DNA of 64,000 bases from Candidatus Staskawiczbacteria bacterium RIFCSPHIGHO2_01_FULL_39_25 (GCA_001820095.1 MHOO01000004.1:1749-65748); one strand, 5' to 3'. Counted from the stretch's first letter, positions 1,278 through 46,632 are shown. Notes: generated from the letters alone by a model not told the origin. Made by a program: numbers and translations.

Positions 1278-1379
1278 TATTGCATTAACTTTCTTTAGTA
1301 GAGGAATCGTGCTTGCTGATTGAGCCACAGAGATATTTTCCCAGAACCACGTTTGGATCACATCCCACTTCTCGCGCAT
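1266..1379 (-). CDS. short ORF family 1, copy A (37 aa, [23 protein letters not shown]...)
   Basis: The paralogous copy at 8839..9090 differs mainly at synonymous third positions. The ATG (1379..1377) lies exactly at the junction with element M. No clear promoter or SD of its own. Confidence 0.35.
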
Positions 1380-1517
1380 ATGGAAAAAGACTGTCTTGTA
1401 GACAGTCTTTTTCCATATATTCGATTGGGATTTGAAGGGCGCCGAGTTTCCTTGTTGACTTTGTGTGAGGCGCCTAGGCCGCGAGTCGGAGCGAGCGGAA
1501 ATCCCTTCGCTCGCGCA
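1379..1517. mobile_element. 139-nt hairpin-rich insertion element M, copy 1, bounded by TCGCGCA (1372..1378 and 1511..1517)
   Basis: Close paralog of identical length at 11640..11778. The uninterrupted junction TCGCGCA|TTCTTTC is seen at 11078..11091. It has three internal hairpins, including a 19-bp-arm palindrome at 1378..1418. Confidence 0.6.
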
Positions 1518-1523
1518 TTCTTT

Positions 1524-1576
1524 CAAAATCACCTTTTTAAGGTGATTTTGGTTATTTTGAAATTCTGTGTTATAAT
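1524..1576 (+). promoter_or_regulatory. module R1 copy 1: 12-bp-stem hairpin (1524..1550) plus extended -10 promoter TGtTATAAT (1568..1576)
   Basis: CAAAATCACCTT-ttt-AAGGTGATTTTG is a perfect palindrome. The TGn+TATAAT follows. The same module recurs at 11091..11155. Confidence 0.45.
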
Positions 1577-1582
1577 AAAACT

Positions 1583-1710
1583 GCAAAGGAAAATCCTCTG
1601 GCATATGATTTATCGGTAAAAATAAGGCGATTAAACAAAAAAAGCGATTGGGAGATTTCACCCGCCAAGAGGAACAATCCTTTGAGGTGCAAATCCCAGT
1701 CGCTTTTTGT
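1583..1710 (+). ncRNA. candidate short transcript or 5' leader ending in a terminator-like hairpin
   Basis: It lies downstream of the R1 -10 box. A 12-bp stem (1642..1653 / 1694..1705) encloses about 40 nt and is followed by a T-run. No credible ORF. It sits 50 nt upstream of the kinase gene. Confidence 0.3.
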
Positions 1711-1760
1711 TTGAAAGGTTGAAGTTGCCTTCATAATTATTCATTTAAGTTACAAAAATT

Positions 1761-2648
1761 ATGGAAGAAAAAGTAGGCAATAAAGAAGGCGACCAACCTA
1801 AGGTTTTGAATTTTACTGGAGAGGAATATTTGGAAGTCGGAGAGATTGCCAAACCATTTTGGGAAAAAGGAGTTTCCGAAAATTTGCCAAAGTTTGTTAT
1901 TTATATGGGAGGGGTCGGTTCTGGAAAAACAACTATGCGGAGGCATCATCAGTCAAGCGGCTATGTGCATTTTGATTTTGGAGAAATTTGCATAGCAATG
2001 GAAAAAGGATTTGGTAAAGATAATCCAAAGTTACCGAATTATGAACTCTTGGCTGGCTCTATGATTTTACAAGAAAGCGTAGAAGCCAAAAAGAACATCG
2101 TGATTGAAATTATTGGTGACGATGAAAAACTATTCATTCCTGTCATAAAAAAAATGAAGGAGATTGGGTATGAAACCTCTCTCCAATTTATTGCGTGTAA
2201 ACCCGAAGACGCATATGGGCGTCACTTAAAGGCTGTAGAAGAAGATAAAGATTATATCTCTTCTTTTTATACGCAAGAAGCTACCTTATCGTTCTTTTAC
2301 GAACAACTTCAATTAGGGAAAATGCCCGAAGCCGTAGAAAAGGATAAAAAATACTTAGTAAAAGTTGATGATAACTTTCACCCTATGGATACAGGTGAAG
2401 CATATGACGACAAGACCTATTCATCATTGGAAGAAGCAGTTAAGAGATGTAAAGAAATAACCATTGACAGCCTTATGCATTCCTATAAGAAGGGGATAAA
2501 TGCAAGTGAACTGTTAGAACAATGGATGGCATTCGGAGATGACCCGTTTGTTTATACTGGAGAAGGAGATTTGCCATTCTCTGCAAGAGATTTTGTTACA
2601 GAAGAATTATGCCTCTACATCATCAAAGAAATGGAAAATATAGAATAA
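1761..2648 (+). CDS. P-loop kinase-like protein (zeta-toxin/AAA-type N-domain) with an unknown C-terminal domain
   Basis: Walker A GGVGSGKTT near residue 50, and a hhhhD-type Walker B (IVIEIIGDD). AAATTATG start context. C-terminal 100 aa unassigned. Confidence 0.5.
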   Translation: MEEKVGNKEGDQPKVLNFTGEEYLEVGEIAKPFWEKGVSENLPKFVIYMGGVGSGKTTMRRHHQSSGYVHFDFGEICIAMEKGFGKDNPKLPNYELLAGSMILQESVEAKKNIVIEIIGDDEKLFIPVIKKMKEIGYETSLQFIACKPEDAYGRHLKAVEEDKDYISSFYTQEATLSFFYEQLQLGKMPEAVEKDKKYLVKVDDNFHPMDTGEAYDDKTYSSLEEAVKRCKEITIDSLMHSYKKGINASELLEQWMAFGDDPFVYTGEGDLPFSARDFVTEELCLYIIKEMENIE

Positions 2649-2650
2649 TT

Positions 2651-2873
2651 TGCTATACTCTACTTGGAATAGCCAGAGTTGATATTTTTGGGCATTCGGC
2701 TCAAAACATTGCTGTGTAATAAGTCCGTCATCCGCCTTTGTGCGGTGGATTTGCAAAGTTTGCAAAAGGTGCGGTTAAAAGTGGCGGTGGCTTACGGGTC
2801 TATCAAGAGTGCTACTCCAAAAAAGATTTTATTTTAGAAAAATATTAAAGGCCTTCCATTGGCCTTTTTTTGT
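2651..2873 (+). ncRNA. candidate ORF-less transcript: extended -10 TGcTATACT (2651..2659) to terminator (2848..2873)
   Basis: I found no ATG between about 2666 and 2850. There are internal CCGC..GCGG and TTTGCAAA palindromes. The terminator is AAAGGCC-ttccatt-GGCCTTT plus a T-run. Confidence 0.3.
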
Positions 2874-3051
2874 TTGGAATATGCGAAAATGCGTCTCGGG
2901 CGCGAGAGCGCAACGGAGATACCGCGGAAGGCCAAGGAAATGTATTTGGAAATAGAAATTACAATGAGATAAATAGGTTGAAATTTATGTCAAAAAGGAG
3001 TAAATTAAAGTAATTTCCCATCAAAATCTCCGCTAAAAGTAGGGAATAGTG

Positions 3052-3077
3052 AATACGCAAGACGCCTTGCGTATTCA
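3052..3077. repeat. 26-nt hairpin repeat AATACGCAAGACGCCTTGCGTATTCA, left copy
   Basis: Identical copy at 8816..8841. 10-bp stem with a 4-nt loop. The two copies bracket the R-M gene block. Confidence 0.8.
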
Positions 3078-3147
3078 AAGAGATGAATGGGGGGGTTGGG
3101 TGGTGCGTGGTCGGAGTAAAATCGTCAAAAAATGGTAAAATAGGAAT

Positions 3148-4905
3148 ATGAAAATAAAAGATTTGCCAAAAATTGATCGGCCAAGGGAAAAATTCCTTGA
3201 GAAGGGTTCAGATGCATTGACCAATAGCGAACTTTTGGCTATTTTGCTTGGCAGTGGAATAAAAGGAACGAATGTAAAAGTATTGTCCCAAAAGATCATC
3301 AAGAAATTTGGAGATAACCTGGTAAATGTTTCGGTTGAGGATTTAATGAAAATCTCAGGAATTGGAGAAGCCAAAGCTTTGCAAATCGCGTCCACTATGG
3401 CTTTAGCTAAAAGAATTTTTGATAAACAAAACTCGTTAGATAATTTAATTTTATCCGCGCAGGATGCGATAGATCTTGTATCGGATTTAAGAGATAAAAA
3501 GCAGGAACACCTAATTTGCCTTTATTTAAATGCTCGTAACGCTTTAATAAAAAAAGAGATCATTTCAGTTGGCATATTAGATAAAAGTATTTTTCATCCT
3601 AGGGAAGTTTTTGCTCCAGGACTAGAAATGCGCGCCGCAGGCGTTATCCTTGTTCATAATCATCCTTCTGGCGATCCAAATCCAAGCCAGCAAGACAAAG
3701 AGGTGGCTAAAAGAACCGTTGAGGCTGGAAAATTAATGGGCATCAATGTTATTGATTTTCTCATCATCGCAAAAAATGGCTCGCACAGCTTGCTTGGTGA
3801 TATTAAAAATATCCAATTAATAGATACTGGGTATGTCGCCGAAGGGTTCCAGGCCTCTTTGTTTGATTTGCTTACGGATGCGGACAACTCTCCTTCTGGC
3901 GTGAAAAATTTAGACAAAAATAAAAAGAGCGTGAGCACTTTGCGATTTATGGATTTTTGTGCGGGGATTGGCGGTGGTCGTCTCGGTCTTGAGAATTTAG
4001 GCTTAGAATGTGTCGGATTTTCAGAGATAGATAAGCATTCTGAAAGAACTTATAGAGAATTCTTTGGAGATAGAGAAAAAAATTATGGAGATTTGATGAA
4101 AATCAATCCAGGTGATTTACCCAATTTTGAAGTGATGATCGCCGGCTTTCCGTGCCAAACTTTTTCTGTTATGGGTCAGAGGAAGGGCATGAAGGATGAT
4201 AGGGGGCAGGTTATTTATGGTTTAATTAAAATAATGAAAGGTAAAGATCTGCCCTACTTTATATTAGAAAATGTAAAAGGATTAGTGAATCATAATAATG
4301 GCAACTCATTTAGAGTGATTTTAGATGAGCTAGATAAAGCCGGATATAAAGTTTATCCCAAGGTTTTGAGTAGTTTGAATCATGGCGTGCCGCAAATGAG
4401 AGAAAGAATTTATTTTGTGGGTGTCAGAAAAGACCTTGTTAAAAAAGGCAGAGAATTCAGGTGGCCAGATCCCGTCAAAACTCCTAAGGTGGCAGAGTAT
4501 TTAATTGATACCAGCAAGCTAGAATTTAACGAAAGAAAAAGATCATACGAAACATTTATAAAATTTATAGATAATAAATATAACAAAGGATTATTTAAGG
4601 TGGATGATTTACTAAAGCAAGAATATTTAATACTAGATACTAGGCAGTCAGACTTAAGATTATACAACGATAAAGTGCCAACACTTAGAACGGGCCGACA
4701 TGGTATTTTGTATGTTAAAAATGGTAAATTTAGGAGTTTATCAGGTTTTGAGGCGTTGCTTTTGCAGGGCTTTCCTAAGAGATTAGCAGAGAAGACGAAA
4801 AATAAAATTAATGATATTTATTTATTAAGCCAGGCTGGAAACGCCATGACAGTTAGTACGATTGAGTCTATAGGAAAAAACTTGCTAAATTATATACAAA
4901 GCTAA
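3148..4905 (+). CDS. fusion protein: N-terminal RadC/JAB (JAMM) domain + C-terminal C5-cytosine DNA methyltransferase
   Basis: RadC-like N-terminus with HNHPSGDPNPSQQD. This is followed by the m5C motifs FCAGIGG (I), FPCQTFS (IV), ENVKGL (VI), QMRERIYFVG (VIII) and GNAMTV (X), all in one uninterrupted ORF. Confidence 0.85.
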   Translation: MKIKDLPKIDRPREKFLEKGSDALTNSELLAILLGSGIKGTNVKVLSQKIIKKFGDNLVNVSVEDLMKISGIGEAKALQIASTMALAKRIFDKQNSLDNLILSAQDAIDLVSDLRDKKQEHLICLYLNARNALIKKEIISVGILDKSIFHPREVFAPGLEMRAAGVILVHNHPSGDPNPSQQDKEVAKRTVEAGKLMGINVIDFLIIAKNGSHSLLGDIKNIQLIDTGYVAEGFQASLFDLLTDADNSPSGVKNLDKNKKSVSTLRFMDFCAGIGGGRLGLENLGLECVGFSEIDKHSERTYREFFGDREKNYGDLMKINPGDLPNFEVMIAGFPCQTFSVMGQRKGMKDDRGQVIYGLIKIMKGKDLPYFILENVKGLVNHNNGNSFRVILDELDKAGYKVYPKVLSSLNHGVPQMRERIYFVGVRKDLVKKGREFRWPDPVKTPKVAEYLIDTSKLEFNERKRSYETFIKFIDNKYNKGLFKVDDLLKQEYLILDTRQSDLRLYNDKVPTLRTGRHGILYVKNGKFRSLSGFEALLLQGFPKRLAEKTKNKINDIYLLSQAGNAMTVSTIESIGKNLLNYIQS

Positions 4906-4906
4906 T

Positions 4907-5686
4907 ATGAAACAAATGAAAAAGAAAAATATTCTCGAAATGATTGCTCGCGGTTCTAAAACCGCGAAAGGTGGATTTAAGAATGAAAAGGATGTTATTA
5001 AAAAGTTTAATAATTGGGAAAAAGACGCTATCGCACAAAAATGGCTTGAAATGATGAACTATGATTTAAAGGATATTGAATATGTAAAAGCAACTAAGAT
5101 ACGCGGCCACTATAAGGCTGATATTCAAGTTAGGATTCAAATAGTAATTAAATTAAAATCTCAGTCAGATATACAAAATCTACAAGTAAAATTAGTTAGC
5201 AACCCTCAGGGATTTAATCAGATAGATAAAAGATGGGTTGATAAATACGCAGAAATGTGGAGCATCCCCGTAGATATAGTGAAACTGCTAAAACTTTTTA
5301 CTGGGGAGGCAAAACCAATAAGCAGTAAAATAAAAGATTCAAGAAGAATGCTTTTAACTGAACTTAAAATAGTAGATCAGCAAAAGGTTATTGATTTCTT
5401 CGACCATAATAAAATTCTGGTTATTTCAGATTTATTAAAAGGAAGGGGTGAATTTTCCGCTGATTGGGTTTTAGTGATCTTGAAATTGAAAAAGGAAAGT
5501 AGGTGGGTTTTAAGATCAATTAATGAAGCGATGAATGTTTTTGGAGGTGGCGACGTCAGAATAACGTCGCAGGGAGGTTTGAAAATCGGTAAGATTGGAA
5601 TGCAAAGAAAGGGTGGAGATAATGGGAGAGACAGCGCTAAAATGCTTCAATTTAAAATTAATCCAATTGAGCTCTTCAAGAATTAA
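4907..5686 (+). CDS. putative type II restriction endonuclease partnered with the adjacent m5C methyltransferase
   Basis: It starts 2 nt after the MTase stop and is followed by vsr. K-A-D-I-Q-V block. The C-terminal tail ..AKMLQFK resembles my recollection of the MspI-type tail, which is weak evidence. Confidence 0.5.
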   Translation: MKQMKKKNILEMIARGSKTAKGGFKNEKDVIKKFNNWEKDAIAQKWLEMMNYDLKDIEYVKATKIRGHYKADIQVRIQIVIKLKSQSDIQNLQVKLVSNPQGFNQIDKRWVDKYAEMWSIPVDIVKLLKLFTGEAKPISSKIKDSRRMLLTELKIVDQQKVIDFFDHNKILVISDLLKGRGEFSADWVLVILKLKKESRWVLRSINEAMNVFGGGDVRITSQGGLKIGKIGMQRKGGDNGRDSAKMLQFKINPIELFKN

Positions 5687-5691
5687 GTTTC

Positions 5692-6102
5692 ATGACCGAC
5701 ACTGTTTCCAAAAAGAAACGCAGTGAAATAATGTCCCGCGTTAAAAACAGAGACAGTAAAATAGAGATTCTTTTGAGAAAAAGATTATGGAAAGAGGGCA
5801 TAAGGTATAGAAAGAATGCAAATAAATATTTTGGTAAACCCGATATTGTCCTAAAAAGATATAAGGCAGTTATTTTTGTGGATTCTTGTTTTTGGCATGG
5901 ATGTAAAAAGCATTGTCGCATTCCTTCTATTCGTAAAAAGTATTGGGTAAACAAGATTTCTAGGAATAAAATTAGAGATAAAGAAGTGGGTAAATACTAC
6001 AAAAAAGTCGATTGGAGAATTTTAAGAGTATGGGAGCATGATATTGAGAAAAGTTTTGAAAAATCATTTTTTGAAGTGTTGGAGTTTCTAAAAGGAAAGT
6101 AG
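5692..6102 (+). CDS. vsr: very short patch repair endonuclease
   Basis: RSEIMSRVKNRDSKIE, GKPDIVL, FVDSCFWHGC and N..RD motifs typical of Vsr. It sits in an m5C MTase context. Confidence 0.9.
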   Translation: MTDTVSKKKRSEIMSRVKNRDSKIEILLRKRLWKEGIRYRKNANKYFGKPDIVLKRYKAVIFVDSCFWHGCKKHCRIPSIRKKYWVNKISRNKIRDKEVGKYYKKVDWRILRVWEHDIEKSFEKSFFEVLEFLKGK

Positions 6103-6106
6103 ATTT

Positions 6107-8263
6107 ATGAAAAAGCTGAAAGTAAAGCTAGAGAATTGCTATGGGATTAAAAAGCTAGGGCACAGCTTTGATTTTTCCAAACACAAAACATATTCAATTT
6201 ACGCTTCCAATGGCGTGATGAAAACATCTTTTACAAAGACCTTCTTGAGGCTAAGCGAAGGTAAAATGCCAGAAGAGTTAATTCATGGCTATCCGTCTGA
6301 ATATGAAGTAAAAATCGATGGGCAAACCATAGAGAAAGAGGCAATATTTGTAATTAAATCCTATATCAAAAGTTATCAATCGGGGAATATACATACCTTG
6401 CTAGTTGACGGGAAAAGTCAAAAAGAATACTACGATATCTACTCTGCCATATTGGAAGAAAAGAATAAATTACTGCCTAGGATAAATAAATTATCGGGCG
6501 TCAAGAAGGACGAAATAGAGCCGAAAGTTATTAGAGATTTTCAGAAAGAAAACTTTTTTGATATTTTAAAGGGATTAGAGGTAGATTCTATTAAGGAAGA
6601 TTTTTCAGGTATAAAATACGATGTCATTTTTAATGATGATAGTATTAAATTTCTTGAAAGTCCGGAAGTTTTAAAAAATATAAAAGAATACATAAAGATA
6701 TCTGACAAAATAATAAGCAATTCTAAGTTTTTTAAAAAAGGCACTTTTACTTCAATGAATGCTGACAATGTTGCAACCGCATTAAAAAAGGAAAACTTTT
6801 TTTCGGCAAAGCATGCTGTGAAGATAGATGGTCAGGCTGAGCTAATAGAAAGCGATAAAGATCTTGCTGCAAGGATAGCGACTGAAAGAAAGGAGATATT
6901 AACAAGCCCAGAATTGAAGAAGATAGAGGATGCTATTACCGCGAAGGCGGCAAACAGGTCTTTCAAGATTTTCCTAGAAGAGAATCCTGGTATTTTAAGT
7001 TATCTTGAGGCAGATAGATTGGGAGAACTTAGAAAAAACTTATGGAAGTCTTATTTCAAAAAAGAAAAAGCTTTATATATGGAGTTGATGGATAAATACA
7101 CTAAAGGTAAAAAAAAGTTAAATGAAATAGAGGAAAAAGCAGTTCAGCAAATGTCTATCTGGGACGAGGTGGTTAAAAAGTTTAAAAAAAGATTTTTTGT
7201 TCCATTCAATATAAGTATTGAAAATAGGAGAAGTGCAATAATAGGGAGAGAGTTGCCGAATATTTCTTTTCACTTTGATGATGGGAACTCAAAGCCAAGA
7301 AGTCTTAAAAGAAATGAGTTAGATAGCCTTGAGGCTTTGAGTCACGGAGAAGAAAAAGCTTTATATATTCTAAATATAATTTTTGAAATAGAGTCTAGGA
7401 AACGGGCAGGGCAAAAAACATTACTTGTGATTGATGATATTGCAGACTCATTTGATTATAAAAATAAATACGCCATCGTTGAATACCTTAAAGAAAACTC
7501 AAAGGAAAAAGACTTTTTCCAGATAATTTTGACTCACAATTTTGACTTTTTTAGAACTCTCAGGAGTCGCATTGATGGAGAGTGGGAAAACTATTTAATA
7601 GCACACAAGACTAGTACGGGAATTCTTTTAGAAAGCATTGTGGGTAAAAATATTATAGATCCCTTTGCGGCATGGAAGCTAAAATTAAAAGGTAACGGCA
7701 AAGAATTTATCGCTTCGGTGCCCTTTATTAGGAATTTAATTGAATATCTAGGTGAAGGCAGTGGTGAAAATCGTTACGAAAAATTAACGTCTCTTCTGCA
7801 TATTAAGAAAGGTATACCTGATATTGAAGTACAGGAATTGCATGATATTTTTAACAACACCCTAAATCCCAAAGTACAATTTCAAAAGATAGGAAGACAG
7901 CCAGTAAAGAAGTTAATTTATGATTTAGCTGACAGCATAGAAAAAGATAATTCAGAAACAATAAACTTGGAAAACAAGATTATCTTATCTATTGCCATTA
8001 GATTAGTAGCAGAGGAATTCATGTGGGCCAAAGTAACTGATTCCACTCCAATTAATGGCTCTCAAACAGGCTTATTGTTCGATAGGTTTTTAAAAGATTT
8101 TGAAACCAAAAAAGAAGAGAAGGGTAATATAGAAGTTTTGAGTAAGGTTGTGTTGATTACGCCTGAAAATATACACCTCAACTCTTTTATGTACGAGCCA
8201 ATTTTGGACATGTCTGATTTTGAACTGAAACAGCTATATAGTGAAGTAAAAATTTTAAAATAA
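6107..8263 (+). CDS. ABC/SMC-type (AAA_13-like) ATPase with a degenerate Walker A and an unassigned C-terminal domain
   Basis: IYASNGVMKTSF occupies the place of GxNGSGKT. Signature-like LSHGEEKALYIL, Walker B LLVIDDIADSFD and a central coiled region. The architecture recalls PrrC/RloC-type proteins. Confidence 0.6.
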   Translation: MKKLKVKLENCYGIKKLGHSFDFSKHKTYSIYASNGVMKTSFTKTFLRLSEGKMPEELIHGYPSEYEVKIDGQTIEKEAIFVIKSYIKSYQSGNIHTLLVDGKSQKEYYDIYSAILEEKNKLLPRINKLSGVKKDEIEPKVIRDFQKENFFDILKGLEVDSIKEDFSGIKYDVIFNDDSIKFLESPEVLKNIKEYIKISDKIISNSKFFKKGTFTSMNADNVATALKKENFFSAKHAVKIDGQAELIESDKDLAARIATERKEILTSPELKKIEDAITAKAANRSFKIFLEENPGILSYLEADRLGELRKNLWKSYFKKEKALYMELMDKYTKGKKKLNEIEEKAVQQMSIWDEVVKKFKKRFFVPFNISIENRRSAIIGRELPNISFHFDDGNSKPRSLKRNELDSLEALSHGEEKALYILNIIFEIESRKRAGQKTLLVIDDIADSFDYKNKYAIVEYLKENSKEKDFFQIILTHNFDFFRTLRSRIDGEWENYLIAHKTSTGILLESIVGKNIIDPFAAWKLKLKGNGKEFIASVPFIRNLIEYLGEGSGENRYEKLTSLLHIKKGIPDIEVQELHDIFNNTLNPKVQFQKIGRQPVKKLIYDLADSIEKDNSETINLENKIILSIAIRLVAEEFMWAKVTDSTPINGSQTGLLFDRFLKDFETKKEEKGNIEVLSKVVLITPENIHLNSFMYEPILDMSDFELKQLYSEVKILK

Positions 8264-8270
8264 GAAAACT

Positions 8271-8393
8271 ATGATTCAGCTAATTCTAATTTTCATTATC
8301 GGAGCTATGGTTGGATTTTTGGTGGCGTCGTGGGTTTGGTTTATGAGAAAATGGGGACAGCCACCATTTATTCGGAATGGTAAAGAAAGTTAA
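8271..8393 (+). CDS. small membrane protein (40 aa)
   Basis: MIQLILIFIIGAMVGFLVASWVWFMRKWGQPPF.. forms one TM helix. AAACTATG start context like the core genes. Too short for the ORF track. Confidence 0.35.
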   Translation: MIQLILIFIIGAMVGFLVASWVWFMRKWGQPPFIRNGKES

Positions 8394-8416
8394 GCGCGTT
8401 ATTTGCAAAAAATAAA

Positions 8417-8476
8417 TTTATTAAACTACTTGTGGTGAGTTTATTAAACTACTTGTAGTGAGTTTATTGAACTATG
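8417..8476. repeat. 23-nt tandem direct repeat, about 2.6 copies (TTTATTAAACTACTTGTGGTGAG)
   Basis: Copies at 8417..8439 and 8440..8462 differ by 1 nt. A partial third copy (8463..8476) contains the ATG of the downstream gene. Confidence 0.8.
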
Positions 8477-8812
8477 ACCTATTTATTAATTTTAATCCTT
8501 GGCGTGGTGGTGGCGGTTGCGTTTCTTTTTTGGATTGCTAAAAGGGAATCTAAACAATACGGGACCGGTACTGGCGAAGAGCTGGTGGGTATTTGTGTTT
8601 CGGCCATTGAAACCGCTTCACAAAAAGAGGGGCGCAAGCAAAGGGTGCTGGTCATGCTTCAGGAAAAAAACGGGCTTTCCAATGCTTATATCCGGAAAGT
8701 GTTGGGCGTATCCAGCCGTTCCGTTGTAAACTATATGGACGAACTTGAAAAAGAGGGGAAAGTTGAGCAGATTGGAAAAGTTGGCCAATCCGTAACCTAT
8801 CGGGCAAAATAG
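8474..8812 (+). CDS. membrane-anchored winged-helix (MarR/ArsR-like) DNA-binding protein
   Basis: N-terminal TM helix (LLILILGVVVAVAFLFWI) followed by a wHTH-like segment, LSNAYIRKVLGVSSRSVVNYMDELEKEGKV. Confidence 0.5.
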   Translation: MTYLLILILGVVVAVAFLFWIAKRESKQYGTGTGEELVGICVSAIETASQKEGRKQRVLVMLQEKNGLSNAYIRKVLGVSSRSVVNYMDELEKEGKVEQIGKVGQSVTYRAK

Positions 8813-8815
8813 CCC

Positions 8816-8841
8816 AATACGCAAGACGCCTTGCGTATTCA
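8816..8841. repeat. 26-nt hairpin repeat, right copy
   Basis: Identical to 3052..3077. It starts 4 nt after the stop of the wHTH gene, and its last 3 nt form the minus-strand stop of short ORF family 1 copy B. Confidence 0.8.
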
Positions 8842-9090
8842 TAGGTAGGGGAATCCCGCGCTGGCTGATTGTGCGATTGAGATGTTTTCCCAGAACTATA
8901 GACCTCTTGCAAAATAAGTTTTGACTGCAAATTGTATATTTCGGCCACAAATTCGCTATAATTTTTTACCGTATCCAGAGGATACGCTAAAAAATTCTAT
9001 CAAATTTGCATCTCAAAATCTTCAATTTTCGTTACAAAACTTATTTTGCAAGATGTCTTATGTTTGGACTACATCCCACTTCTCGCGCAA
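8839..9090 (-). pseudogene. short ORF family 1, copy B, split by a MITE-like insertion and carrying TTG instead of ATG
   Basis: LREKWDVVQT | MITE | FWENISIAQSAS.. aligns codon for codon with copy A. Six changes are synonymous and three are conservative. Confidence 0.45.
8897..9060. mobile_element. MITE-like palindromic element, variant TIR (CTTGCAAAATAAGTTTTG), copy M1
   Basis: Absent from the paralogous sequence at 1346..1351. It shares the core AAATTCGCTATAATTTT-hairpin-AAAATTCTATCAAATTT with the copy at 46142..46317. Confidence 0.6.
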
Positions 9091-9185
9091 ACTATTTACA
9101 CTCTATCATAATTATGGTAGAGTGTTTTTAGTTCCCAGACAACTAATCCTCGTAGGCAGCTATGCCTTAAATAGCAGGAGAGAAA

Positions 9186-9650
9186 ATGAACATGAATATG
9201 TCCGATCTTTGTCTTGCGTTTGCTCGCGAGACGAATCAGGATCTCCCAGAAGCCACAGAACAACTTACTAAACTTGTCCAAAGGATCCTTTTCAGTGAGC
9301 CAGATGATGGCCAGCCTTATACAAGAGATGACCTGGAACTTGCAGAATCCTATCGTCGTCTCGTTGCCGTCAGTGAGGCTTTAACCAAGATGGCGACTGA
9401 AGAAGGCGTTAAGGGTGAAGCAAGTAAATTAGTTTTCGAACTTGGGGTGCCCCATGGTGATTGCAGCGTTTCTGGTCTCGCTCGCACCGCGATTAGTATG
9501 GGTAGCCGAATTATCATGGATAGTCCCTGGATTCGCCTAGGTCAAATTGCTGATGATCTAGAGATCGAGGAGCGTCTAGATGTTCCAGCTGAACTTGTCA
9601 AAAGATATTTTCGATCAGGAGAAAATCTTTCATCTAGGGAAACAAAGTAG
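9186..9650 (+). CDS. hypothetical protein (154 aa), higher-GC orphan
   Basis: SD AGGAGA lies 6 nt upstream. GC is visibly higher than in the core genes. A terminator follows. No recognisable motif. Confidence 0.6.
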   Translation: MNMNMSDLCLAFARETNQDLPEATEQLTKLVQRILFSEPDDGQPYTRDDLELAESYRRLVAVSEALTKMATEEGVKGEASKLVFELGVPHGDCSVSGLARTAISMGSRIIMDSPWIRLGQIADDLEIEERLDVPAELVKRYFRSGENLSSRETK

Positions 9651-9664
9651 GATTCTACTTATTC

Positions 9665-9697
9665 GCCAGTTGCGTCGAGCAGCTGGCTCTTTTTTTA
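9665..9697 (+). terminator. intrinsic terminator
   Basis: CCAGTTG-cgtcgag-CAGCTGG followed by a T-run. Confidence 0.6.
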
Positions 9698-9772
9698 TTT
9701 TTCTAAATCTGGAATATAAATATACTCTTTTTCTTCTTGAATTATGGTTCTAACGTTGTTCACGACGTCGCG
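9695..9772 (-). pseudogene. short ORF family 2, copy C1 (RDVVNNVRTIIQEEKEYIYIPDLEK), start codon replaced by TAG
   Basis: It aligns with copies at 10990..11085 and 11542..11640, with many synonymous differences. The codon preceding CGC is TAG. An internal GTG is a possible start. Confidence 0.4.
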
Positions 9773-9775
9773 CTA

Positions 9776-9803
9776 TTGACTTTTTTAGTAAATATAATAT
9801 AGT
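9776..9803 (+). promoter_or_regulatory. candidate promoter TTGACT-16-TATAGT (module R3)
   Basis: -35 at 9776..9781 and -10 at 9798..9803, immediately right of the TCGCGC core and upstream of 9863..10639. Confidence 0.35.
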
Positions 9804-9862
9804 ATAAGTTGAGTAGGCCCTTTGACAGTTAAATTCACTTTTACCAGAGAAAGGATGTGTGT

Positions 9863-10639
9863 ATGCCAGCACCAGAAAAGGTTTATTTCTTCAATTCAAG
9901 CGAACGAGGCTTGTTTGTTGAAATTTACTTTCCTAAAAGGGCGGCTTACTACGGAGCAATCTTTAATGCTCTACGCAAAGGACATGACGAAAATTTGGTC
10001 AAGGAATACTTGAGAACAAGGGTAAAAGACTTAATCAATGAATTTCAGGCTTTTCCCGATTTGTTCAAGCCAAGCCGCTACATTTCACCCAAGTTTAGCC
10101 GCACCCTGCCCTCCATGGACGAAGCTCTTGGAAGGATTGAAATGTATAAATCTCCTTTCACGGGTTGGTCAACCTACTCCGTTGACGGCGTATGGTTTGA
10201 CGAAAGTAAAACCCCAGTAGAACTCATAGAAGAAGCGACCCAAGTGGTTCGTGTGATGTTTCGCTTTGATAATTCGTTTGCCAAACAAGCAGTTGACGAA
10301 GATTGCTCTGATGTTTTGCGGGCTATTCTCTTCTGGATTATTTCTCAGCATGGTCGTCTCTATGACCATAAGGTATGGGGCAAAGAGGAGCAAGCCCAGT
10401 TTATGGCAAGGCACAAGCCTTGGCCGAAAAAGAAAGAACTCTTTGCTAAAAAACACTACGCTGACATTGCAGTTGAAACGGGCAAATGGTTAGACAATCG
10501 GGAAATATTCATCTTTTGCTACCTTGTCAGGAATTTCTGGAAAAGGGTAGTGAGAGAGGAGATGCGGGAAGATGAAATCTGGGTTACGAGCTTGTTCGAC
10601 TTGGTGTTGAACGTGGTCAAGCCCACCAAACCCGTTTAA
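9863..10639 (+). CDS. hypothetical protein (258 aa), higher-GC orphan
   Basis: SD AAAGGA lies 8 nt upstream of the ATG at 9863; the ORF track starts at 9857. Protein-like composition with no recognisable domain. Confidence 0.6.
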   Translation: MPAPEKVYFFNSSERGLFVEIYFPKRAAYYGAIFNALRKGHDENLVKEYLRTRVKDLINEFQAFPDLFKPSRYISPKFSRTLPSMDEALGRIEMYKSPFTGWSTYSVDGVWFDESKTPVELIEEATQVVRVMFRFDNSFAKQAVDEDCSDVLRAILFWIISQHGRLYDHKVWGKEEQAQFMARHKPWPKKKELFAKKHYADIAVETGKWLDNREIFIFCYLVRNFWKRVVREEMREDEIWVTSLFDLVLNVVKPTKPV

Positions 10640-10674
10640 TTGGGTTTCTAACCCTCTCTGAAAGGAGAAAAACT

Positions 10675-10899
10675 ATGCTTTCCAAAGCAACGACTCAACT
10701 AACTGAGGAAGTGTTTGGGTATTTTGGCGAGGAAGATAAGCAAAAGGCAAAAAAAGAACCTGAAGCTCTTCTAATTTCTCTGCTCTTGGTTCTCAAGAGA
10801 GAGTTGCCCGATGTCTCCTCCATGTTAAGTGATGTTGAAGAAGCTCTCTACGAAGATAATCTCAAAAAAGCACGAGAGAGGCTTGTGCAGAGCAAATAA
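10675..10899 (+). CDS. hypothetical small acidic protein (74 aa)
   Basis: SD AAAGGAG upstream. It follows 9863..10639 after 35 nt, and a terminator follows. Confidence 0.55.
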   Translation: MLSKATTQLTEEVFGYFGEEDKQKAKKEPEALLISLLLVLKRELPDVSSMLSDVEEALYEDNLKKARERLVQSK

Positions 10900-10927
10900 A
10901 AACCCTAAAAAGGGTAAAAAAACAACA

Positions 10928-10964
10928 GACCCCAGTCGTCCTTTGGACTTCTGGGGCTTTTTTA
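10928..10964 (+). terminator. intrinsic terminator
   Basis: CCCCAG-15 nt-CTGGGG followed by CTTTTTTATTT. Confidence 0.65.
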
Positions 10965-10989
10965 TTTGCAAGCGGGAAAATTAGATAAA

Positions 10990-11085
10990 TTATACATTTG
11001 TCTTTTCTGGTATCAAATCTGGGATATAAATATATTCATTTTGGCATTCAATTGCAGTTCTAACATTGTTCACGACGTCGCGCAT
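10990..11085 (-). CDS. short ORF family 2, copy C2 (31 aa, MRDVVNNVRTAIECQNEYIYIPDL...)
   Basis: ATG at 11085..11083 inside the TCGCGCAT core. An AAGGTGA SD-like sequence lies within the R1 hairpin 10 nt upstream. Synonymous pattern against C1 and C3. Confidence 0.4.
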   Translation of the reverse strand: MRDVVNNVRTAIECQNEYIYIPDLIPEKTNV

Positions 11086-11090
11086 TCTTT

Positions 11091-11155
11091 CAAAATCACC
11101 TTTTTAAGGTGGTTTTTGTCGGCCAATTGGCGGATTATTTTTAAAGGGGTATAAT
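11091..11155 (+). promoter_or_regulatory. module R1 copy 2: hairpin (11091..11117) plus TATAAT (11150..11155)
   Basis: Homologous to 1524..1576. It lies upstream of the cupin gene. Confidence 0.45.
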
Positions 11156-11210
11156 AAAAATGCAGATTAGAAAGTCGATAGTTAAAATTAAACTCAAAAA
11201 GTGAAAAATA

Positions 11211-11549
11211 ATGGCAAAATTAGAAAGTAAAAAATTTGATTCTCCAGATGAAACTGTGAACATAGGAAGAGGTAAGGTTGAGGTTATTAGTCTAGGCGGT
11301 TTTAAGGTGAGAAAACTTACTTTGCAACCTGGTTGGAGATGGTCGGAAGATGTAAAACCGATGGCTAAGACTGAAAGTTGCAAAATACCACATCTTAATA
11401 TTCACATTTCTGGTAAACTGGGTGTAAAAATGGATGATGGTACCGAACAAGAATTTGGCTCAGGGGACGTTGCATTATTACCACCAGGCCACGATGGGTG
11501 GGTTGTTGGGAATGAACCAGCGATAATAATAGAACAAACCCCTACATAA
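11211..11549 (+). CDS. cupin domain protein
   Basis: Small beta-barrel pattern with G..W..H and GDVALLPPGHDGWVVGNEP, typical of single-domain cupins. Confidence 0.7.
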   Translation: MAKLESKKFDSPDETVNIGRGKVEVISLGGFKVRKLTLQPGWRWSEDVKPMAKTESCKIPHLNIHISGKLGVKMDDGTEQEFGSGDVALLPPGHDGWVVGNEPAIIIEQTPT

Positions 11550-11640
11550 AATTCAAAATCCCGAAAGTTAAATCTGGCATATAAATACACTCATTCTGTT
11601 GGTGTATAATATTTCTAACGTTGTTGACGACGTCGCGCAT
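11542..11640 (-). CDS. short ORF family 2, copy C3 (32 aa, MRDVVNNVRNIIHQQNECIYMPDL...)
   Basis: ATG at 11640..11638 at the junction with element M copy 2. It overlaps the cupin 3' end by 8 nt. Confidence 0.35.
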   Translation of the reverse strand: MRDVVNNVRNIIHQQNECIYMPDLTFGILNFM

Positions 11641-11778
11641 ATGGAAAAAGACTGTCTACAAGACAGTCTTTTTTCATATATCTGATTGGGATTTGAAGGG
11701 CGCCGAGTTCCTTTGTTGACATTGTGTGAGGCGCCCAGGCCGCGAGTCGAAGCGAGCGGAAATCCCCTCGCTCGCGCA
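11640..11778. mobile_element. 139-nt element M, copy 2, bounded by TCGCGCA (11633..11639 and 11772..11778)
   Basis: Same length as 1379..1517. The central 5 nt of the first hairpin are reverse-complemented (TACAA here, TTGTA in copy 1). Confidence 0.6.
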
Positions 11779-11788
11779 CAATAGTACG

Positions 11789-11852
11789 AACAGATCCTTC
11801 GGGGTCTGTTTTGTTTTGTAAATCTGGCATTTTGCTCTGAATTTGCTATAAT
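11789..11852 (+). promoter_or_regulatory. module R2: terminator hairpin (11789..11815), 12-nt partial L2 repeat (11819..11830), extended -10 TGcTATAAT (11844..11852)
   Basis: CAGATCC-ttcg-GGGTCTG plus a T-run. TAAATCTGGCAT repeats 11569..11580. The TGn+TATAAT lies upstream of 11990..12550. Confidence 0.4.
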
Positions 11853-39201: not shown

Positions 39202-42200
39202 ATGCTAAACTCTCCGTTTAAAAAATTCCTTTTCGTAAGCATTATAAGCGTACTGGCATTTTTTAATGCTGATTTAGCGTATGCGGCTTGTACAGCGGTG
39301 CCGACCATCACCAGTATTTCTCCATCGTCTAAAAATGCCGGAGATGCAACCTTTACCTTAACGGTCAACGGCACTAATTTTCTCAATAGCTCAAAAGTAA
39401 GGTTCAACGGCTCTGACAAGACCACTACCTATGTGTCTGCCACCCAACTGACTGCCGCTATTCCTTCATCAGATGTTTCCAGCGGGGGATCATATTCTGT
39501 TTCGGTGTTTAATCAGCCATCTTGTCGGGTTGTTACCGACAAGGAACCGTGGTCAATTATCATCTCACAAGACAGCAATTATCTTTATGTAGTTAATAAT
39601 GGCGATAATACCCTGCAAAAATTTAATACGTCTGATCTAAACCAAACAGTACCCCATGTTACTACAGATAACTATCCTCAATCGGTAGCTGTTTCGCATG
39701 ACGGTAAATATATCTATATAGTTAATGAAACCAATGAAACTCTTCAGAAATTTGATGCTGCCAATTTAAATTTATTGGCAAGCGCCACAACAGGTAAAAG
39801 TCCTCGATCTGTCGCTATTGCTCCTGATGGCAATTATGTATATGTTGCCAATTATACCAATAAAAAGGTCCAACAATTTTATACCCCGAATCTTAGCCTT
39901 TCAGAAAGTATTAATGCCGACGGCAATCCTACCGCGATAACTATTTCTCCCGACGGCAATTATTTATATATTGCTAGTTCTAATAAAAATAATATCCAAA
40001 AATTCAGTATTCCTAATTTGAATTTATTGCAGACTACGGCGCTTCTTGATGACTATGTACGGTCTCTTGTAGTTGCCCCCGACGGAAATTATGTATATGC
40101 GGTTGATTATTTCAACTTGAAAAAATTCAATGCCACAAACCTTAGTTTAGTAAAGAGTTCTAGCGGGGGAAGCCAATCGGATCCCGGCTATTCCATATCA
40201 GTATCTCCCGACGGCAATTATCTATATACTATTAACCCTATTACACCATCTATCAACAAATTTAGCGTTTCTGATTTAGGCTTAATTCTTAGTAATAATT
40301 TAGCCAGTCCTTATATATCGCCTCATTCAATTGCTATTTCTGCTGACGGAAATTTTATTTACGTTCTTTTTCTTAGCAAGGGAGTTACTAATAATCATCT
40401 TTTAATAAAAATTGATACTTCTACGTTAGCTTTTGAATCTGATGGAGGGAGTTCTAATGCCCAAACATTCACGGTTAATAATCCTCTCCCAACTACCACC
40501 TCAATCTCTCCAACCTCAAAAACTGCCGGAGAGCCGGATTTTACTCTCACCTTAAACGGCACTAATTTTATTTCAACATCAGTTATTTACCTTGGCAGCC
40601 TTGGATTAACGACTACGTATGTATCTGCCACCCAGCTAACTGCATCACTGCCAGTGCCTCAAGAAGGAACATATTCCATTACGGTGGTTAATCCAACCCC
40701 CGGCGGAGGCACCTCAAATGGACAAACGTTTACGGTAAATGCAGCTGACAATCCTGCGCCAACCACTACGAGCATTTCACCTGTGTCAAAGAACGTCGGA
40801 GACACGGCATTTACCCTCACCGTCAATGGCACTAATTTTATAGATGCCTCTGTAATAAAATTCAACGATTCAAACAGAACTACCACCTATATTAATTCTA
40901 CCAAAATAAGAACTACCATACCTGTCTCCGACCTTGCCACCGCAGGAACCTTTACTATCACGGTATTCAACCCAACCCCCGGCGGGGGAACCTCCAATGG
41001 GCAGACGCTTACGGTTAATAACCCGGTTCCTACTACCACAAGCATTTCACCATCATCAAAAATTATAGGGGATCCAGGATTTACTTTAACCGTAAATGGC
41101 ACTAAATTTGTTTCAACGTCCACTATTTATTTTGATAGCCTAGGGCTGGCTACTACGTATGTCTCTGCGACGCAATTAACTGCTGATATATCAACCCTGC
41201 CAGCTTTGGGAACCTATTCTATTACCGTGGTAAATCCCGCGCCGGGAGGAGGCACTTCAAATGCCCAAACATTCACGGTCAACAACCCTTTGCCGACTAC
41301 CACCTCAATCTCGCCTACATCAAAAAATGCAGGCGACACAAGCTTTACCCTCACCGTCAATGGCACTAATTTTATTTCAACATCTAAAGTAAGGTTTAGC
41401 GGCTCTGATAGAACTACTACCTATGTGTCTGCCACCCAGCTTACCGCTACCATTCCTGCTTCAGACCTTGCGACCGGTGGCACATTCAATATCACCGTTT
41501 TTAACCCCACTCCCGGCGGGGGAACCTCCAATGGGCAGACGTTTACGGTTAATAACCCAGTTCCAACTACTACAAGTATTTCACCGAATTCGGCAACGCA
41601 AAACGACCCCAGTTTTACCCTCACCGTCAATGGCACTAATTTTGTTGCTGCATCTAAGGTAAGGTTCAACGGTTCTGACCGAACTACTACCTATATCTCT
41701 GCAACCCAGCTTACCGCTACCATTCCTGCTTCAGATCTTACGAGCGCAGGAACTTTCACCATCACGGTATTCAACTTAACCCCCGGGGGAGGGACTTCCA
41801 ATGGACAGACATTCACGGTTGTTGAAGCAAACCCAACGGCGCCAACTACTACCAGTATTTCTCCGACATCAAAAACAACCGGAAGCCCGGCTTTCACGCT
41901 TACCGTCAATGGTACTGGTTTTATCCCTTCATCCAAAGTTCAGTTTAATCTTTCAGATAGAACAACAACGTTTGTTTCCCCGGTTCAATTGACAGCCGCT
42001 ATACCTGCATCAGATTTGACGACGGGAGGAATATATAGGATTACCGTGGATAATGGAATCGGAGGATTATCAAACGCCCAGTCATTCTTTGTTAATAATC
42101 CGGTGCCGGTAACTATAAATATTTTGCCAAGTTCGGCGTTTGTAAACGGTCCAAGTTTTGTCTTAACGGTCAACGGTTCTAATTTTGTATCTTCTTCCAA

Positions 42201-46421: not shown

Positions 46422-46632
46422 GGGCTCATAGTTCAGTGGTAGAACGCTGTCTTGCACAGCTTTTATGGGGGGCCCGTAGTTCAGTGGTAGAACGCTGTCC
46501 TGATAAGACAGAGGTCAAAGGTCCGATTCCTTTCGGGCCCACCATAAAAGCTGGAAAATTAACATTTAGAAAAATAAACAGAAAATTTTCCTAAGACAGA
46601 GGTCGAAGGTCCGATTCCTTCTGAGCCCACCA
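46422..46632 (+). tRNA. interrupted tRNA: 5' half 46422..46456 and 3' half 46593..46629 plus CCA, with a 136-nt intervening sequence in the anticodon loop (anticodon GCA/Cys most parsimonious, ambiguous)
   Basis: Acceptor GGGCTCA/TGAGCCC is 7/7 paired. The D arm and anticodon stem CTGTC/GACAG match the inner tRNA. T arm GAAGG-TCCGATT-CCTTC. The leader/trailer helix CATAACTTTGGT/ACCAAAGTTATG is 12 bp. Confidence 0.55.
46470..46544 (+). tRNA. tRNA-Ile(GAU)-like, 72 nt plus encoded CCA, nested inside the interrupted tRNA
   Basis: GGGCCCG-TA-GTTC-AGTGGTA-GAAC-G-CTGTC-CTGATAA-GACAG-AGGTC-AAAGG-TCCGATT-CCTTT-CGGGCCC-A-CCA. The T loop is atypical (C at position 55). Confidence 0.7.

Follow-up and report, generated by a model that had tools for sequence, protein, structure and literature searches.

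What are the repeats that separate the orphan genes in the first 12 kb of a stretch of DNA from Candidatus Staskawiczbacteria bacterium RIFCSPHIGHO2_01_FULL_39_25? We analyzed a stretch of 64,000 nucleotides (nt) from this genome (GCA_001820095.1, MHOO01000004.1:1749-65748), which we will call the window. A repeat of ~70 bases, which we will call L2 (family D8 of our repeat search), is present as three direct copies at 9704-9773, 11014-11083, and 11569-11638, with 81-83% identity. An initial annotation had noticed that these copies look like diverged coding sequence on the minus strand. It explained them either as a family of proteins of ~30 amino acids (aa), encoded divergently from each cargo gene, or as 5' gene fragments, similar to attachment (att) sites, that were left behind as cassettes accreted at one target gene. 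We propose that the copies of L2 are, very probably, the displaced 3' ends of large serine recombinase (LSR) genes, and that they are att-type scars from the serial accretion of cassettes at a tRNA gene.

On the minus strand, the three copies align codon for codon. Copy 1 translates as RDVVNNVRTIIQEEKEYIYIPDLEK, with a stop at either end, while copies 2 and 3 translate as MRDVVNNVRTAIECQNEYIYIPDLIPEKTNV and MRDVVNNVRNIIHQQNECIYMPDLTFGILNFM, each followed by a stop. Five codons (5, 7, 12, 17, and 24) have synonymous-only differences across all three copies, and there are four more synonymous pairs (ACC/ACT, ATA/ATT, CAA/CAG, and ATT/ATC), which accounts for the nine synonymous-only codons that were originally counted. 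Across codons 2-24, the variable columns are split 4/4/12 among codon positions 1/2/3 (chi-square p = 0.04), and the pairwise dN/dS is 0.19-0.28 (Nei-Gojobori). The codon periodicity from these three copies alone is marginally significant. It is clear from 115 independent copies in other genomes: if we consider only the columns that are not constrained by the search pattern, the mean information (arithmetic on the per-column table) is 0.89, 1.36, and 0.64 bits at the three codon positions. This is the classic pattern for coding sequences, with substitutions spread unevenly over the codon positions, and it confirms the coding signature that the initial annotation described.

The boundaries of the homology were also described correctly. 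On one side, the similarity ends just past the residues PDL, and the 2-8 residues that follow are heterogeneous (in the window, they show no relation between one copy and another). On the other side, it ends at TCGCGCA(T). Copies 2 and 3 share the boundary TCGCGCAT, and copy 1 has TAG there. Neither a DNA profile nor a peptide profile found any copies in the window beyond these three. There is a possible truncated fourth copy (Table 1), whose match score is reached by 0.7% of random windows.

We compared a profile of the three peptides to 1.84 billion representative proteins and found matches in 124 protein clusters (E <= 1e-3). Most of the 124 have the motif [W/M][LR]x[IV]V[ND][ND]VRTIIQxQxEYIYIPDL at the C-terminus, with 2-8 residues before the stop. 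The sequences that precede the motif are unrelated to each other and are often nonsensical. The sole upstream partner that recurs is the C-terminal domain of LSRs (...SEPEEKRxLLxxxLQNxxLxGKxLxFxLKxPFDxI...P.WL...), which is in frame with the motif in at least 12 clusters, such as P0006, P0016, P0039, P0056, P0087, and P0115. L2 is homologous to the C-termini of LSRs, and judging from these sequences, the copies in the window are probably the cut-off last ~25-30 codons of LSR genes. We are quite confident that this is the best explanation for the repeats as a whole.

In light of these homologs, the junction codon does not appear to be a start codon. It is indeed ATG in copies 2 and 3 and TAG in copy 1, as first reported. 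However, this codon straddles the junction, and it aligns with a position that is usually W in the homologs (encoded by TGG, the antisense of the CCA end of a tRNA) and that can also be L, M, or another residue. We read through the sequence around the L2 copies and saw that the start is not conserved and that no ribosome-binding site is consistently present. We also rejected the idea of a host gene that starts with MRDVVNNVR, as the peptide profile places the motif at the C-terminus instead of the N-terminus. A degenerate DNA pattern for a protein with this beginning had no matches in genome contigs or in viral contigs, and its one match in metagenomes was again a short orphan open reading frame (ORF).

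We then used a degenerate DNA pattern for VRT-x7-YIYIPDL to find genomic loci in species-representative genomes. This identified at least 119 loci, nearly all of them from Patescibacteria. A collection of viral contigs had no copies of the general motif. Most of the genomic copies (~115/122) have a stop codon 5-80 codons upstream, so these tails are orphans, and upstream of the motif the copies bear no relation to each other. Only at locus L071 does the frame remain open for 500 codons upstream. This locus encodes an intact LSR of 519 aa, with the Resolvase and Recombinase domains from Pfam, that ends in the tail.

The closest relative of the L071 enzyme in the database is P0171, which is 98% identical and has the ending ...SRSQWLPGRDSNPD... 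in place of ...SRSQWLTIVDNVRT.... At the DNA level, the contig that encodes P0171 (locus L129) shares 6778 nt with L071 at 100% identity, as far as ...TCTCAATGGCTG / ...CAATGGCTG. Past TGGCTG, which is the antisense of the tRNA end ...CAGCCA, L129 continues into an antisense tRNA-Gln and L071 continues into the tail. Given this identity followed by divergence, L071 and L129 are one element in two junction states. The crossover lies within TGGCTG, which is also where we infer the exact crossover dinucleotide to be. We also surveyed the endings of the 120 closest full-length homologs of these LSRs. In at least 59 of them, WL is followed directly by xDSNx, which is encoded by the antisense of the T-loop of a tRNA. 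Another 40 have a stop codon within 3 aa after WL, and ~13 have a tail-like extension. Thus, the usual genomic state of these enzymes is to be integrated at the 3' end of a tRNA gene.

We noticed another type of truncated recombinase as well. Many C-terminal fragments of ~100 aa start at the same residues, ITKD(D/E)YDKK, with unrelated sequence upstream (P0125-P0170; L062, L096, and L128). In P0129, this boundary is preceded by the core-like sequence WLRTWG. The ITKD boundary may be a second, internal pseudo-site; no core-like sequence is evident at the boundary in the two DNA examples.

The location of the tails relative to tRNA genes follows a rule. In 45 of 47 cases, the tRNA that is closest to the tail lies on the other strand. 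In 35 of the 47, it is in the predicted convergent position, such that the tRNA's 3' end points toward the array (p = 1.6e-12; if we count loci, 28/40, p = 2.8e-9). For ten tails, the nearest tRNA is upstream and antisense. These cases are explicable if that tRNA is the next one of a cluster, within the native downstream flank; for instance, L017 has tRNA-Ser on both sides.

The sequence next to the tail also depends on the tRNA. The bases that are directly 5' of ATCGTG... match the antisense of the neighboring tRNA's 3' end and vary with the species of tRNA: GCAGGG for Trp, GCTCCG for Asn, GCGCGG for Asp, and GCTGxC for Gln. Between the 12 nt that are 5' of each tail and the antisense of the neighboring tRNA's 3' end, the mean length of the exact run was 5.58 nt, versus 3.78 nt for permuted pairings, and none of 5,000 permutations equaled the actual match. 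Considering both the core match and the orientation, we conclude that the target of accretion is the 3' end of a tRNA gene, and not the gene that supplied the fragments. The initial annotation had recognized the scars of accretion, but these are the 3' ends of LSR genes rather than the 5' ends of a target gene.

Sixteen of 123 loci have 2-3 tails, which are always in direct orientation and are 0.5-5 kb apart. The gene that is 3' of the tail is antisense to it in 86 of 105 cases, and this is true in the window as well. In the related loci, an island is anchored at the 3' end of a tRNA and has att repeats between tandem or degenerate units; the window has all of these features except for the tRNA. 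We predict that the target tRNA is on the plus strand, to the left of the start of the contig, with a 3' end of ...TCGCGC+A. At L132, which contains a close relative of L2, the core is ATGCGCGGGG and matches the end of tRNA-Leu. TCGCGC+A is the same kind of core, so the tRNA for the window is presumably Leu-like.

The tails are constrained not just as proteins but also as DNA. The codon GTG is found in 91 of 115 copies (versus a background frequency of 0.21), GTT is found in 111 of 124 (background 0.40), and AGA is found in 121 of 124 (background 0.31). The freezing of these codons reveals a second layer of constraint besides the coding constraint, and the sequence pattern points to a role at the DNA level. 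The frozen GTTAGAAC resembles the antisense of the T-loop, (A/G)TTCGAAC. If we measure from the shared core of L071 and L129, T(A/C)GAAC is at 18-23 nt in the tail and at 13-18 nt in the tRNA. The attachment sites of large serine integrases have a similar arrangement: the half-sites of attP and attB contain the same motif of 7-9 bp, which is 5 bp nearer to the center in attB (PMC3783163). Given that the offset matches this published shift, our interpretation is that the tail is the P' arm of attP, and that the B' arm of attB is formed by the T-arm and acceptor of the tRNA. The T-loop-like motif is probably bound by the zinc-ribbon domain (ZD) of the recombinase. In L2 copy 3, this motif has decayed to TTAGAAA. 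Among secondary tail copies, which were identified at the DNA level without regard to frame, 17 of 18 are still open. This would fit with either the youth of these copies or the continued use of the sites.

Given these observations, we propose that the attP of this family of elements from the Candidate Phyla Radiation (CPR) is contained within the gene for the recombinase. There, the codons for W-L-R/P (TGG CTN CGN/CCN) would be antisense to the 6-9 bases with which the target tRNA gene ends, and those bases (CCA, the discriminator base, and the 3' strand of the acceptor) would form the crossover core. The sequence that is 3' of the core, which encodes IV[ND][ND]VRTIIQxQxEYIYIPDL and another 2-8 residues, would be the P' arm. 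Integration at the tRNA's 3' end would fuse the body of the recombinase to the tRNA, so that the gene reads WL(P/R)xDSNxxP, and would relocate the tail to the far end of the inserted DNA, beside a copy of the core. Repeated insertion at one tRNA, along with the loss or absence of the recombinase bodies, would then give an array of cargo in which every unit is followed by an antisense tail and a core. We propose that GTG...GTTAGAAC is frozen as a mimic of the T-loop that is bound by the recombinase, and whose distance from the crossover exceeds that of the real T-loop by 5 bp. The tails would have a coding signature because they were copied from different functional recombinase genes that were under purifying selection. 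Synonymous differences do not require that the tails be translated in place.

The first 12 kb of the window is a chain of units, each of which closes in a repeat and TCGCGCA (Table 1). This heptamer occurs 16 times in the window, versus ~5 expected, and it is present at each module boundary in the first 12 kb (at 1372, 1511, 9083, 11078, 11633, and 11772, with TCGCGC at 9768). The units end at the cores at 1378, 1517, 9089, 9773, 11084, 11639, and 11778. The cargo genes are all on the plus strand and are convergent with the repeat; for the ORF that precedes L2 copy 1, this orientation relative to the tail agrees with the pattern across loci. L2 copy 2 includes a 31-aa ORF that is annotated as a gene in a public assembly.

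Table 1. Repeats, cores, and cargo genes in the first 12 kb of the window.
Feature	Position	Strand	Description
L2 copy 1	9704..9773	-	orphan tail RDVVNNVRTIIQEEKEYIYIPDL; core TCGCGC 9768-9773; junction codon TAG
L2 copy 2	11014..11084	-	orphan tail MRDVVNNVRTAIECQNEYIYIPDL; core TCGCGCA 11078-11084
L2 copy 3	11569..11639	-	orphan tail MRDVVNNVRNIIHQQNECIYMPDL; core TCGCGCA 11633-11639
Possible truncated fourth L2 copy	11819..11830	-	TAAATCTGGCAT (= ..MPDL); 12-nt exact match with L2 copy 3 (distal end); weak
X1 copy 1 (tail-like repeat of second class)	1300..1378	-	core TCGCGCA 1372-1378
X1 copy 2	8850..9089	-	core TCGCGCA 9083-9089; split by an inverted-repeat miniature element
146-nt unit, copy 1	1372..1517	+	TCGCGCA on both sides; family D7
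146-nt unit, copy 2	11633..11778	+	family D7, 92% identical; inserted at the core adjoining L2 copy 3
42-nt hairpin/terminator-like segment, copy 1	1511..1552	+	directly after core; family D18, 95%
42-nt segment, copy 2	11078..11119	+	directly after the core of L2 copy 2; family D18
Cargo of the large unit between X1 repeats	1553..8849	+	Pfam families on called genes (see text)
Cargo of unit 9090-9773 (ends in L2 copy 1)	9186..9650	+	154-aa ORF, no Pfam match
Cargo of unit 9774-11084 (ends in L2 copy 2)	9857..10899	+	ORFs of 260 aa and 74 aa, no Pfam match
Cargo of unit 11085-11639 (ends in L2 copy 3)	11211..11549	+	112-aa cupin-like ORF (Cupin_3, 23.6 bits)

Judging from its sequence relatives, X1 most likely represents a second class of tails from recombinases. 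These relatives (W[DS]x[IV][RQ]TWFWE) are found in the same arrays and in the same orientation as L2-type tails at L063 and L024. At L063, the X1-like copy and the L2-type tail have identical tRNA-type cores (GCTCCG), and at L024 the core is similar. One X1-like relative retains ATTAGAAC, and other LSRs terminate in comparable WLPFVDAFRTWL-type tails. The junction codon of X1 copy 2 is TTG. This copy is interrupted by a miniature inverted-repeat element of ~150 nt (at ~8897-9062), with the terminal inverted repeats CTTGCAAAATAAGTTTTG at 8906-8923 and 9035-9052.

The 7.6-kb unit between the two copies of X1 contains restriction-modification and other defense genes. It encodes a zeta-toxin-like kinase, a RadC-cytosine methylase fusion, a HinP1I-like endonuclease, Vsr, an SMC-like ATPase, and a helix-turn-helix protein. 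The defense and restriction-modification block at 3148-8263, which includes the methylase fusion (585 aa), the endonuclease, Vsr, and the ATPase (718 aa), belongs to a single cassette unit. Assemblies of this locus (L002 and L124-L127) are 99.75-100% identical and have the same content of units. A small indel around 7129-7169 distinguishes nearly identical strains.

The 146-nt unit is located at the cores of two different classes of tails (X1 and L2 copy 3). It contains two strong hairpins and does not match any Rfam family. By eye, the end of its plus strand, GGAAATCCCTTCGCTCGCGCA, resembles a decayed T-loop and acceptor 3' strand of a tRNA. We considered whether the 146-nt unit and X1 are tRNA fragments, and we rejected this idea: the likeness is by eye only, without support from ARAGORN or Rfam, and X1 is better explained as a second class of tail. 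The 42-nt segment may be the native downstream flank of a tRNA that was brought along by an element.

Elsewhere in the window, the last 41 nt of tRNA-Ile(GAT) (46470-46544) are repeated with 90% identity at 46592-46632, which is 88 nt downstream. This looks like a classical integration scar from a different type of element. Also, a 1385-aa ORF at 39202-43359 contains tandem repeats of ~270 nt with 63-77% identity and probably encodes a repetitive surface protein.

How did units without recombinases arise? It may have been by decay or by mobilization in trans. One possibility, by analogy to the island model for tycheposons, is that recombinase genes decay after serial integrations and that flanking DNA is picked up. 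Another possibility is that cassettes are mobilized in trans at core-plus-tail sites. The 146-nt and 42-nt modules are each duplicated at different cores, and at L024, left flanks are repeated before different classes of tails; these are hints in favor of the second route. Overall, the sequences point to an integration system that is widespread in CPR bacteria and has been little described.

Several observations weigh against our interpretation. Canonical serine integrases are not known to pair attP with attR or attL. If pairing is this strict, then reintegration at the same tRNA requires either the regeneration of attB-like sites, as in the SCC arrays of staphylococci, or a relaxed choice of sites. 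There is no conserved sequence 5' of the core across loci, so the P arm is not evident in the orphan sites. A gene with both the body and the tail is intact in just 1 of the 122 genomic copies that we examined. In the 64-kb window, tblastn with many LSRs matched only the tails, and not a recombinase gene or a fragment of a recombinase body. Similarly, when we built a profile from the part of the LSR that immediately precedes the core, it had no match beside any copy of L2. (An apparent extension of the LSR similarity upstream of copy 1 was rejected because this profile did not support it.) The simple model does not explain L014, L031, and L122, where the tail is just 14 nt away from a tRNA-Arg gene (at its 3' end), without any cargo in between, yet has a core like that for tRNA-Asn (GCTCCGC) and unlike the end of the neighboring tRNA-Arg. 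We saw the target tRNA neither in the window nor in the available assemblies, all of which break ~5.4 kb to the left of the zeta-toxin gene. Finally, the open frames of the secondary tails could reflect ongoing selection, in which case they are not relics.

An alternative is that the tails are working recombination sites, rather than passive scars, in an integron-like array of cassettes that is run in trans by a serine recombinase encoded elsewhere. Any segment between two core-plus-tail sites could then leave as a circle and enter again at another core. The precise boundaries at cores of units that lack recombinases, the presence of the 146-nt unit at cores beside both X1 and L2 copy 3, a single left flank before different classes of tails (at L024 and, for the 42-nt segment, in the window), the open secondary tails that have kept the DNA motif, and the consistently direct orientation of the arrays are all in favor of this alternative. 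However, the four near-identical assemblies of the locus show no cassette polymorphism, a conserved left half-site is not visible, no excised circles were observed, and canonical large serine integrases are strict in pairing attP with attB (PMC3783163). We view this explanation as possible but doubtful. It is improbable that the tails are chromosomal landing pads, that is, native sequences on the attB side near tRNAs, so that a recombinase gains its tail only upon integration. In favor of this are the three loci with a tail 14 nt from tRNA-Arg and no cargo between, and the fact that only one intact gene with body and tail is seen in the genomes. But the cores at those three loci do not match tRNA-Arg, the tails take the place of the tRNA relative to the core (not the place of the downstream flank), subtypes of tails travel with the C-terminal fragments of recombinases, and having the T-loop mimic 5 bp further out is a signature of attP and not of attB.

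Another alternative is that L2 encodes peptides of ~25-32 aa that are translated independently and are divergent from, or antisense to, the cargo genes. Copies 2 and 3 begin with ATG and are open for 31-32 codons, there is a GGTGA-like sequence 10 nt upstream of the ATG of copy 2, gene callers do annotate such ORFs, and the conservation is at the protein level. Nevertheless, we consider this very improbable, and with it the protein family from the initial annotation. The supposed initial M aligns with W, L, or other residues, and with TAG in copy 1; the sequence upstream is unrelated among copies and translation signals are not conserved; the residues past PDL are unrelated among the copies in the window; the motif is contiguous with recombinase bodies; and the frozen synonymous codons imply a role for the DNA. 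We also rejected the idea that L2 is a structured repeat, similar to the attC sites of integrons or to repetitive extragenic palindromic (REP) sequences, with a coding pattern that is a coincidence. The position of L2, 3' of each cargo ORF in a co-oriented array, does resemble integron cassettes. But no copy of L2, on either strand, folds better than shuffled sequences (z = 0.15 to 2.3), and searching Rfam with gathering or permissive thresholds gave no meaningful match. Furthermore, the codon periodicity holds across 115 copies, and the motif runs in frame into recombinase genes. The chance that L2 is such a structure seems negligible to us.

If L2 and its relatives are the displaced ends of LSR genes, then these ~70-nt tails, from at least 119 species-level loci in CPR bacteria and 124 protein clusters, explain many spurious calls of small or chimeric ORFs. 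In a group of bacteria whose mobile elements are poorly charted, the tails would also offer an easy way to recognize islands that are anchored at tRNAs and the points where acquired cassettes begin and end. These loci document the abundant use of tRNA genes by LSRs, and they appear to be a bacterial case of an attachment site that is embedded in a recombinase gene. A mimic of the T-loop, combined with a swappable core from the acceptor end, would explain how one family of enzymes was retargeted among many tRNAs, which might be of practical interest for programmable serine integrases. A bolder proposal is that a large clade of CPR serine recombinases keeps its att site in its own 3' coding end and targets the T-arm and acceptor of tRNAs, and that the tails are functional half-sites, so that the system is a serine analogue of the integron. 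We think this is unlikely. If it were true, then the swap of the C-terminus, between a 25-aa tail and a tRNA-encoded ending, would be a built-in switch between the integrated and free states, and the displaced tails would allow cassettes without recombinases, which often carry defense genes, to be excised, shuffled, and recaptured.

We did not find a description of such a system in CPR bacteria in the open-access literature, but parts of it resemble known systems. As in the tandem islands at tRNA genes (of the Islander/TIGER type, or the tycheposons of Prochlorococcus), insertion is site-specific at the 3' end of a tRNA gene. In those islands, newcomers push older elements outward, and degenerate elements, cargo-only DNA, and flanks from earlier hosts lie between repeats of the attachment site (tycheposon literature; PMC7192596). 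In contrast, the repeat that we describe is not a partial tRNA: it consists of 6-9 nt from the tRNA and ~70 nt of recombinase coding sequence. Also, the enzyme is an LSR and the hosts are Patescibacteria. LSRs are a small minority among tycheposons (27/937), and the use of tRNA genes by this class of recombinase was described in 2020 as previously unreported and as needing experimental proof (PMC7192596). None of the window's proteins that were covered by our Pfam scans belong to the replication modules of tycheposons.

An attP inside the recombinase's own gene, as indicated by L071 and the two junction states, is reminiscent of the "suicidal" tyrosine integrases of the SSV type, whose integration leaves a fragment of the gene at each end (PMC8371274). 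A 2021 review called these self-disrupting integrases exclusively archaeal (PMC8371274). Those tyrosine enzymes are split into large and probably inactive halves, whereas the serine recombinase in bacteria exchanges only its last ~25-30 residues for an ending that is encoded by a tRNA. Its catalytic and DNA-binding domains all remain intact, and its hosts are Patescibacteria and other bacteria. The att sites of LSRs from phages (LI/A118, Bxb1, and phiC31) are also short, with a small core and a motif that is offset by 5 bp (PMC3783163). Unlike our proposed sites, the attP of these phages is intergenic and the attB is usually in a protein-coding gene or is intergenic. Here, attP is within coding sequence, and attB is the universal T-arm and acceptor end of tRNAs, with a core that covaries with the tRNA species.

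Integron arrays share the short or promoter-poor cargo ORFs in a common orientation, the repeat of ~70 nt after each of them, and the precise boundaries. No IntI-type tyrosine recombinase was seen in the Pfam scans of the window proteins that we tested, which were not a systematic search for IntI. Unlike in integrons, there is no attC hairpin, the repeat is derived from coding sequence, and the array is anchored at a tRNA instead of at attI. The staphylococcal cassette chromosome (SCC) and pseudo-SCC elements, which are mobilized by the LSR CcrAB, form arrays of tandem units, which are located at a single conserved gene's 3' end. As in our window, the SCC arrays include units that lack a recombinase and that are bounded by direct repeats of the integration site. 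However, the target of SCC is rlmH, the repeat is just a short integration site, and the ccr genes do not contain an att site, whereas we propose that the CPR recombinases carry theirs within their own 3' ends.

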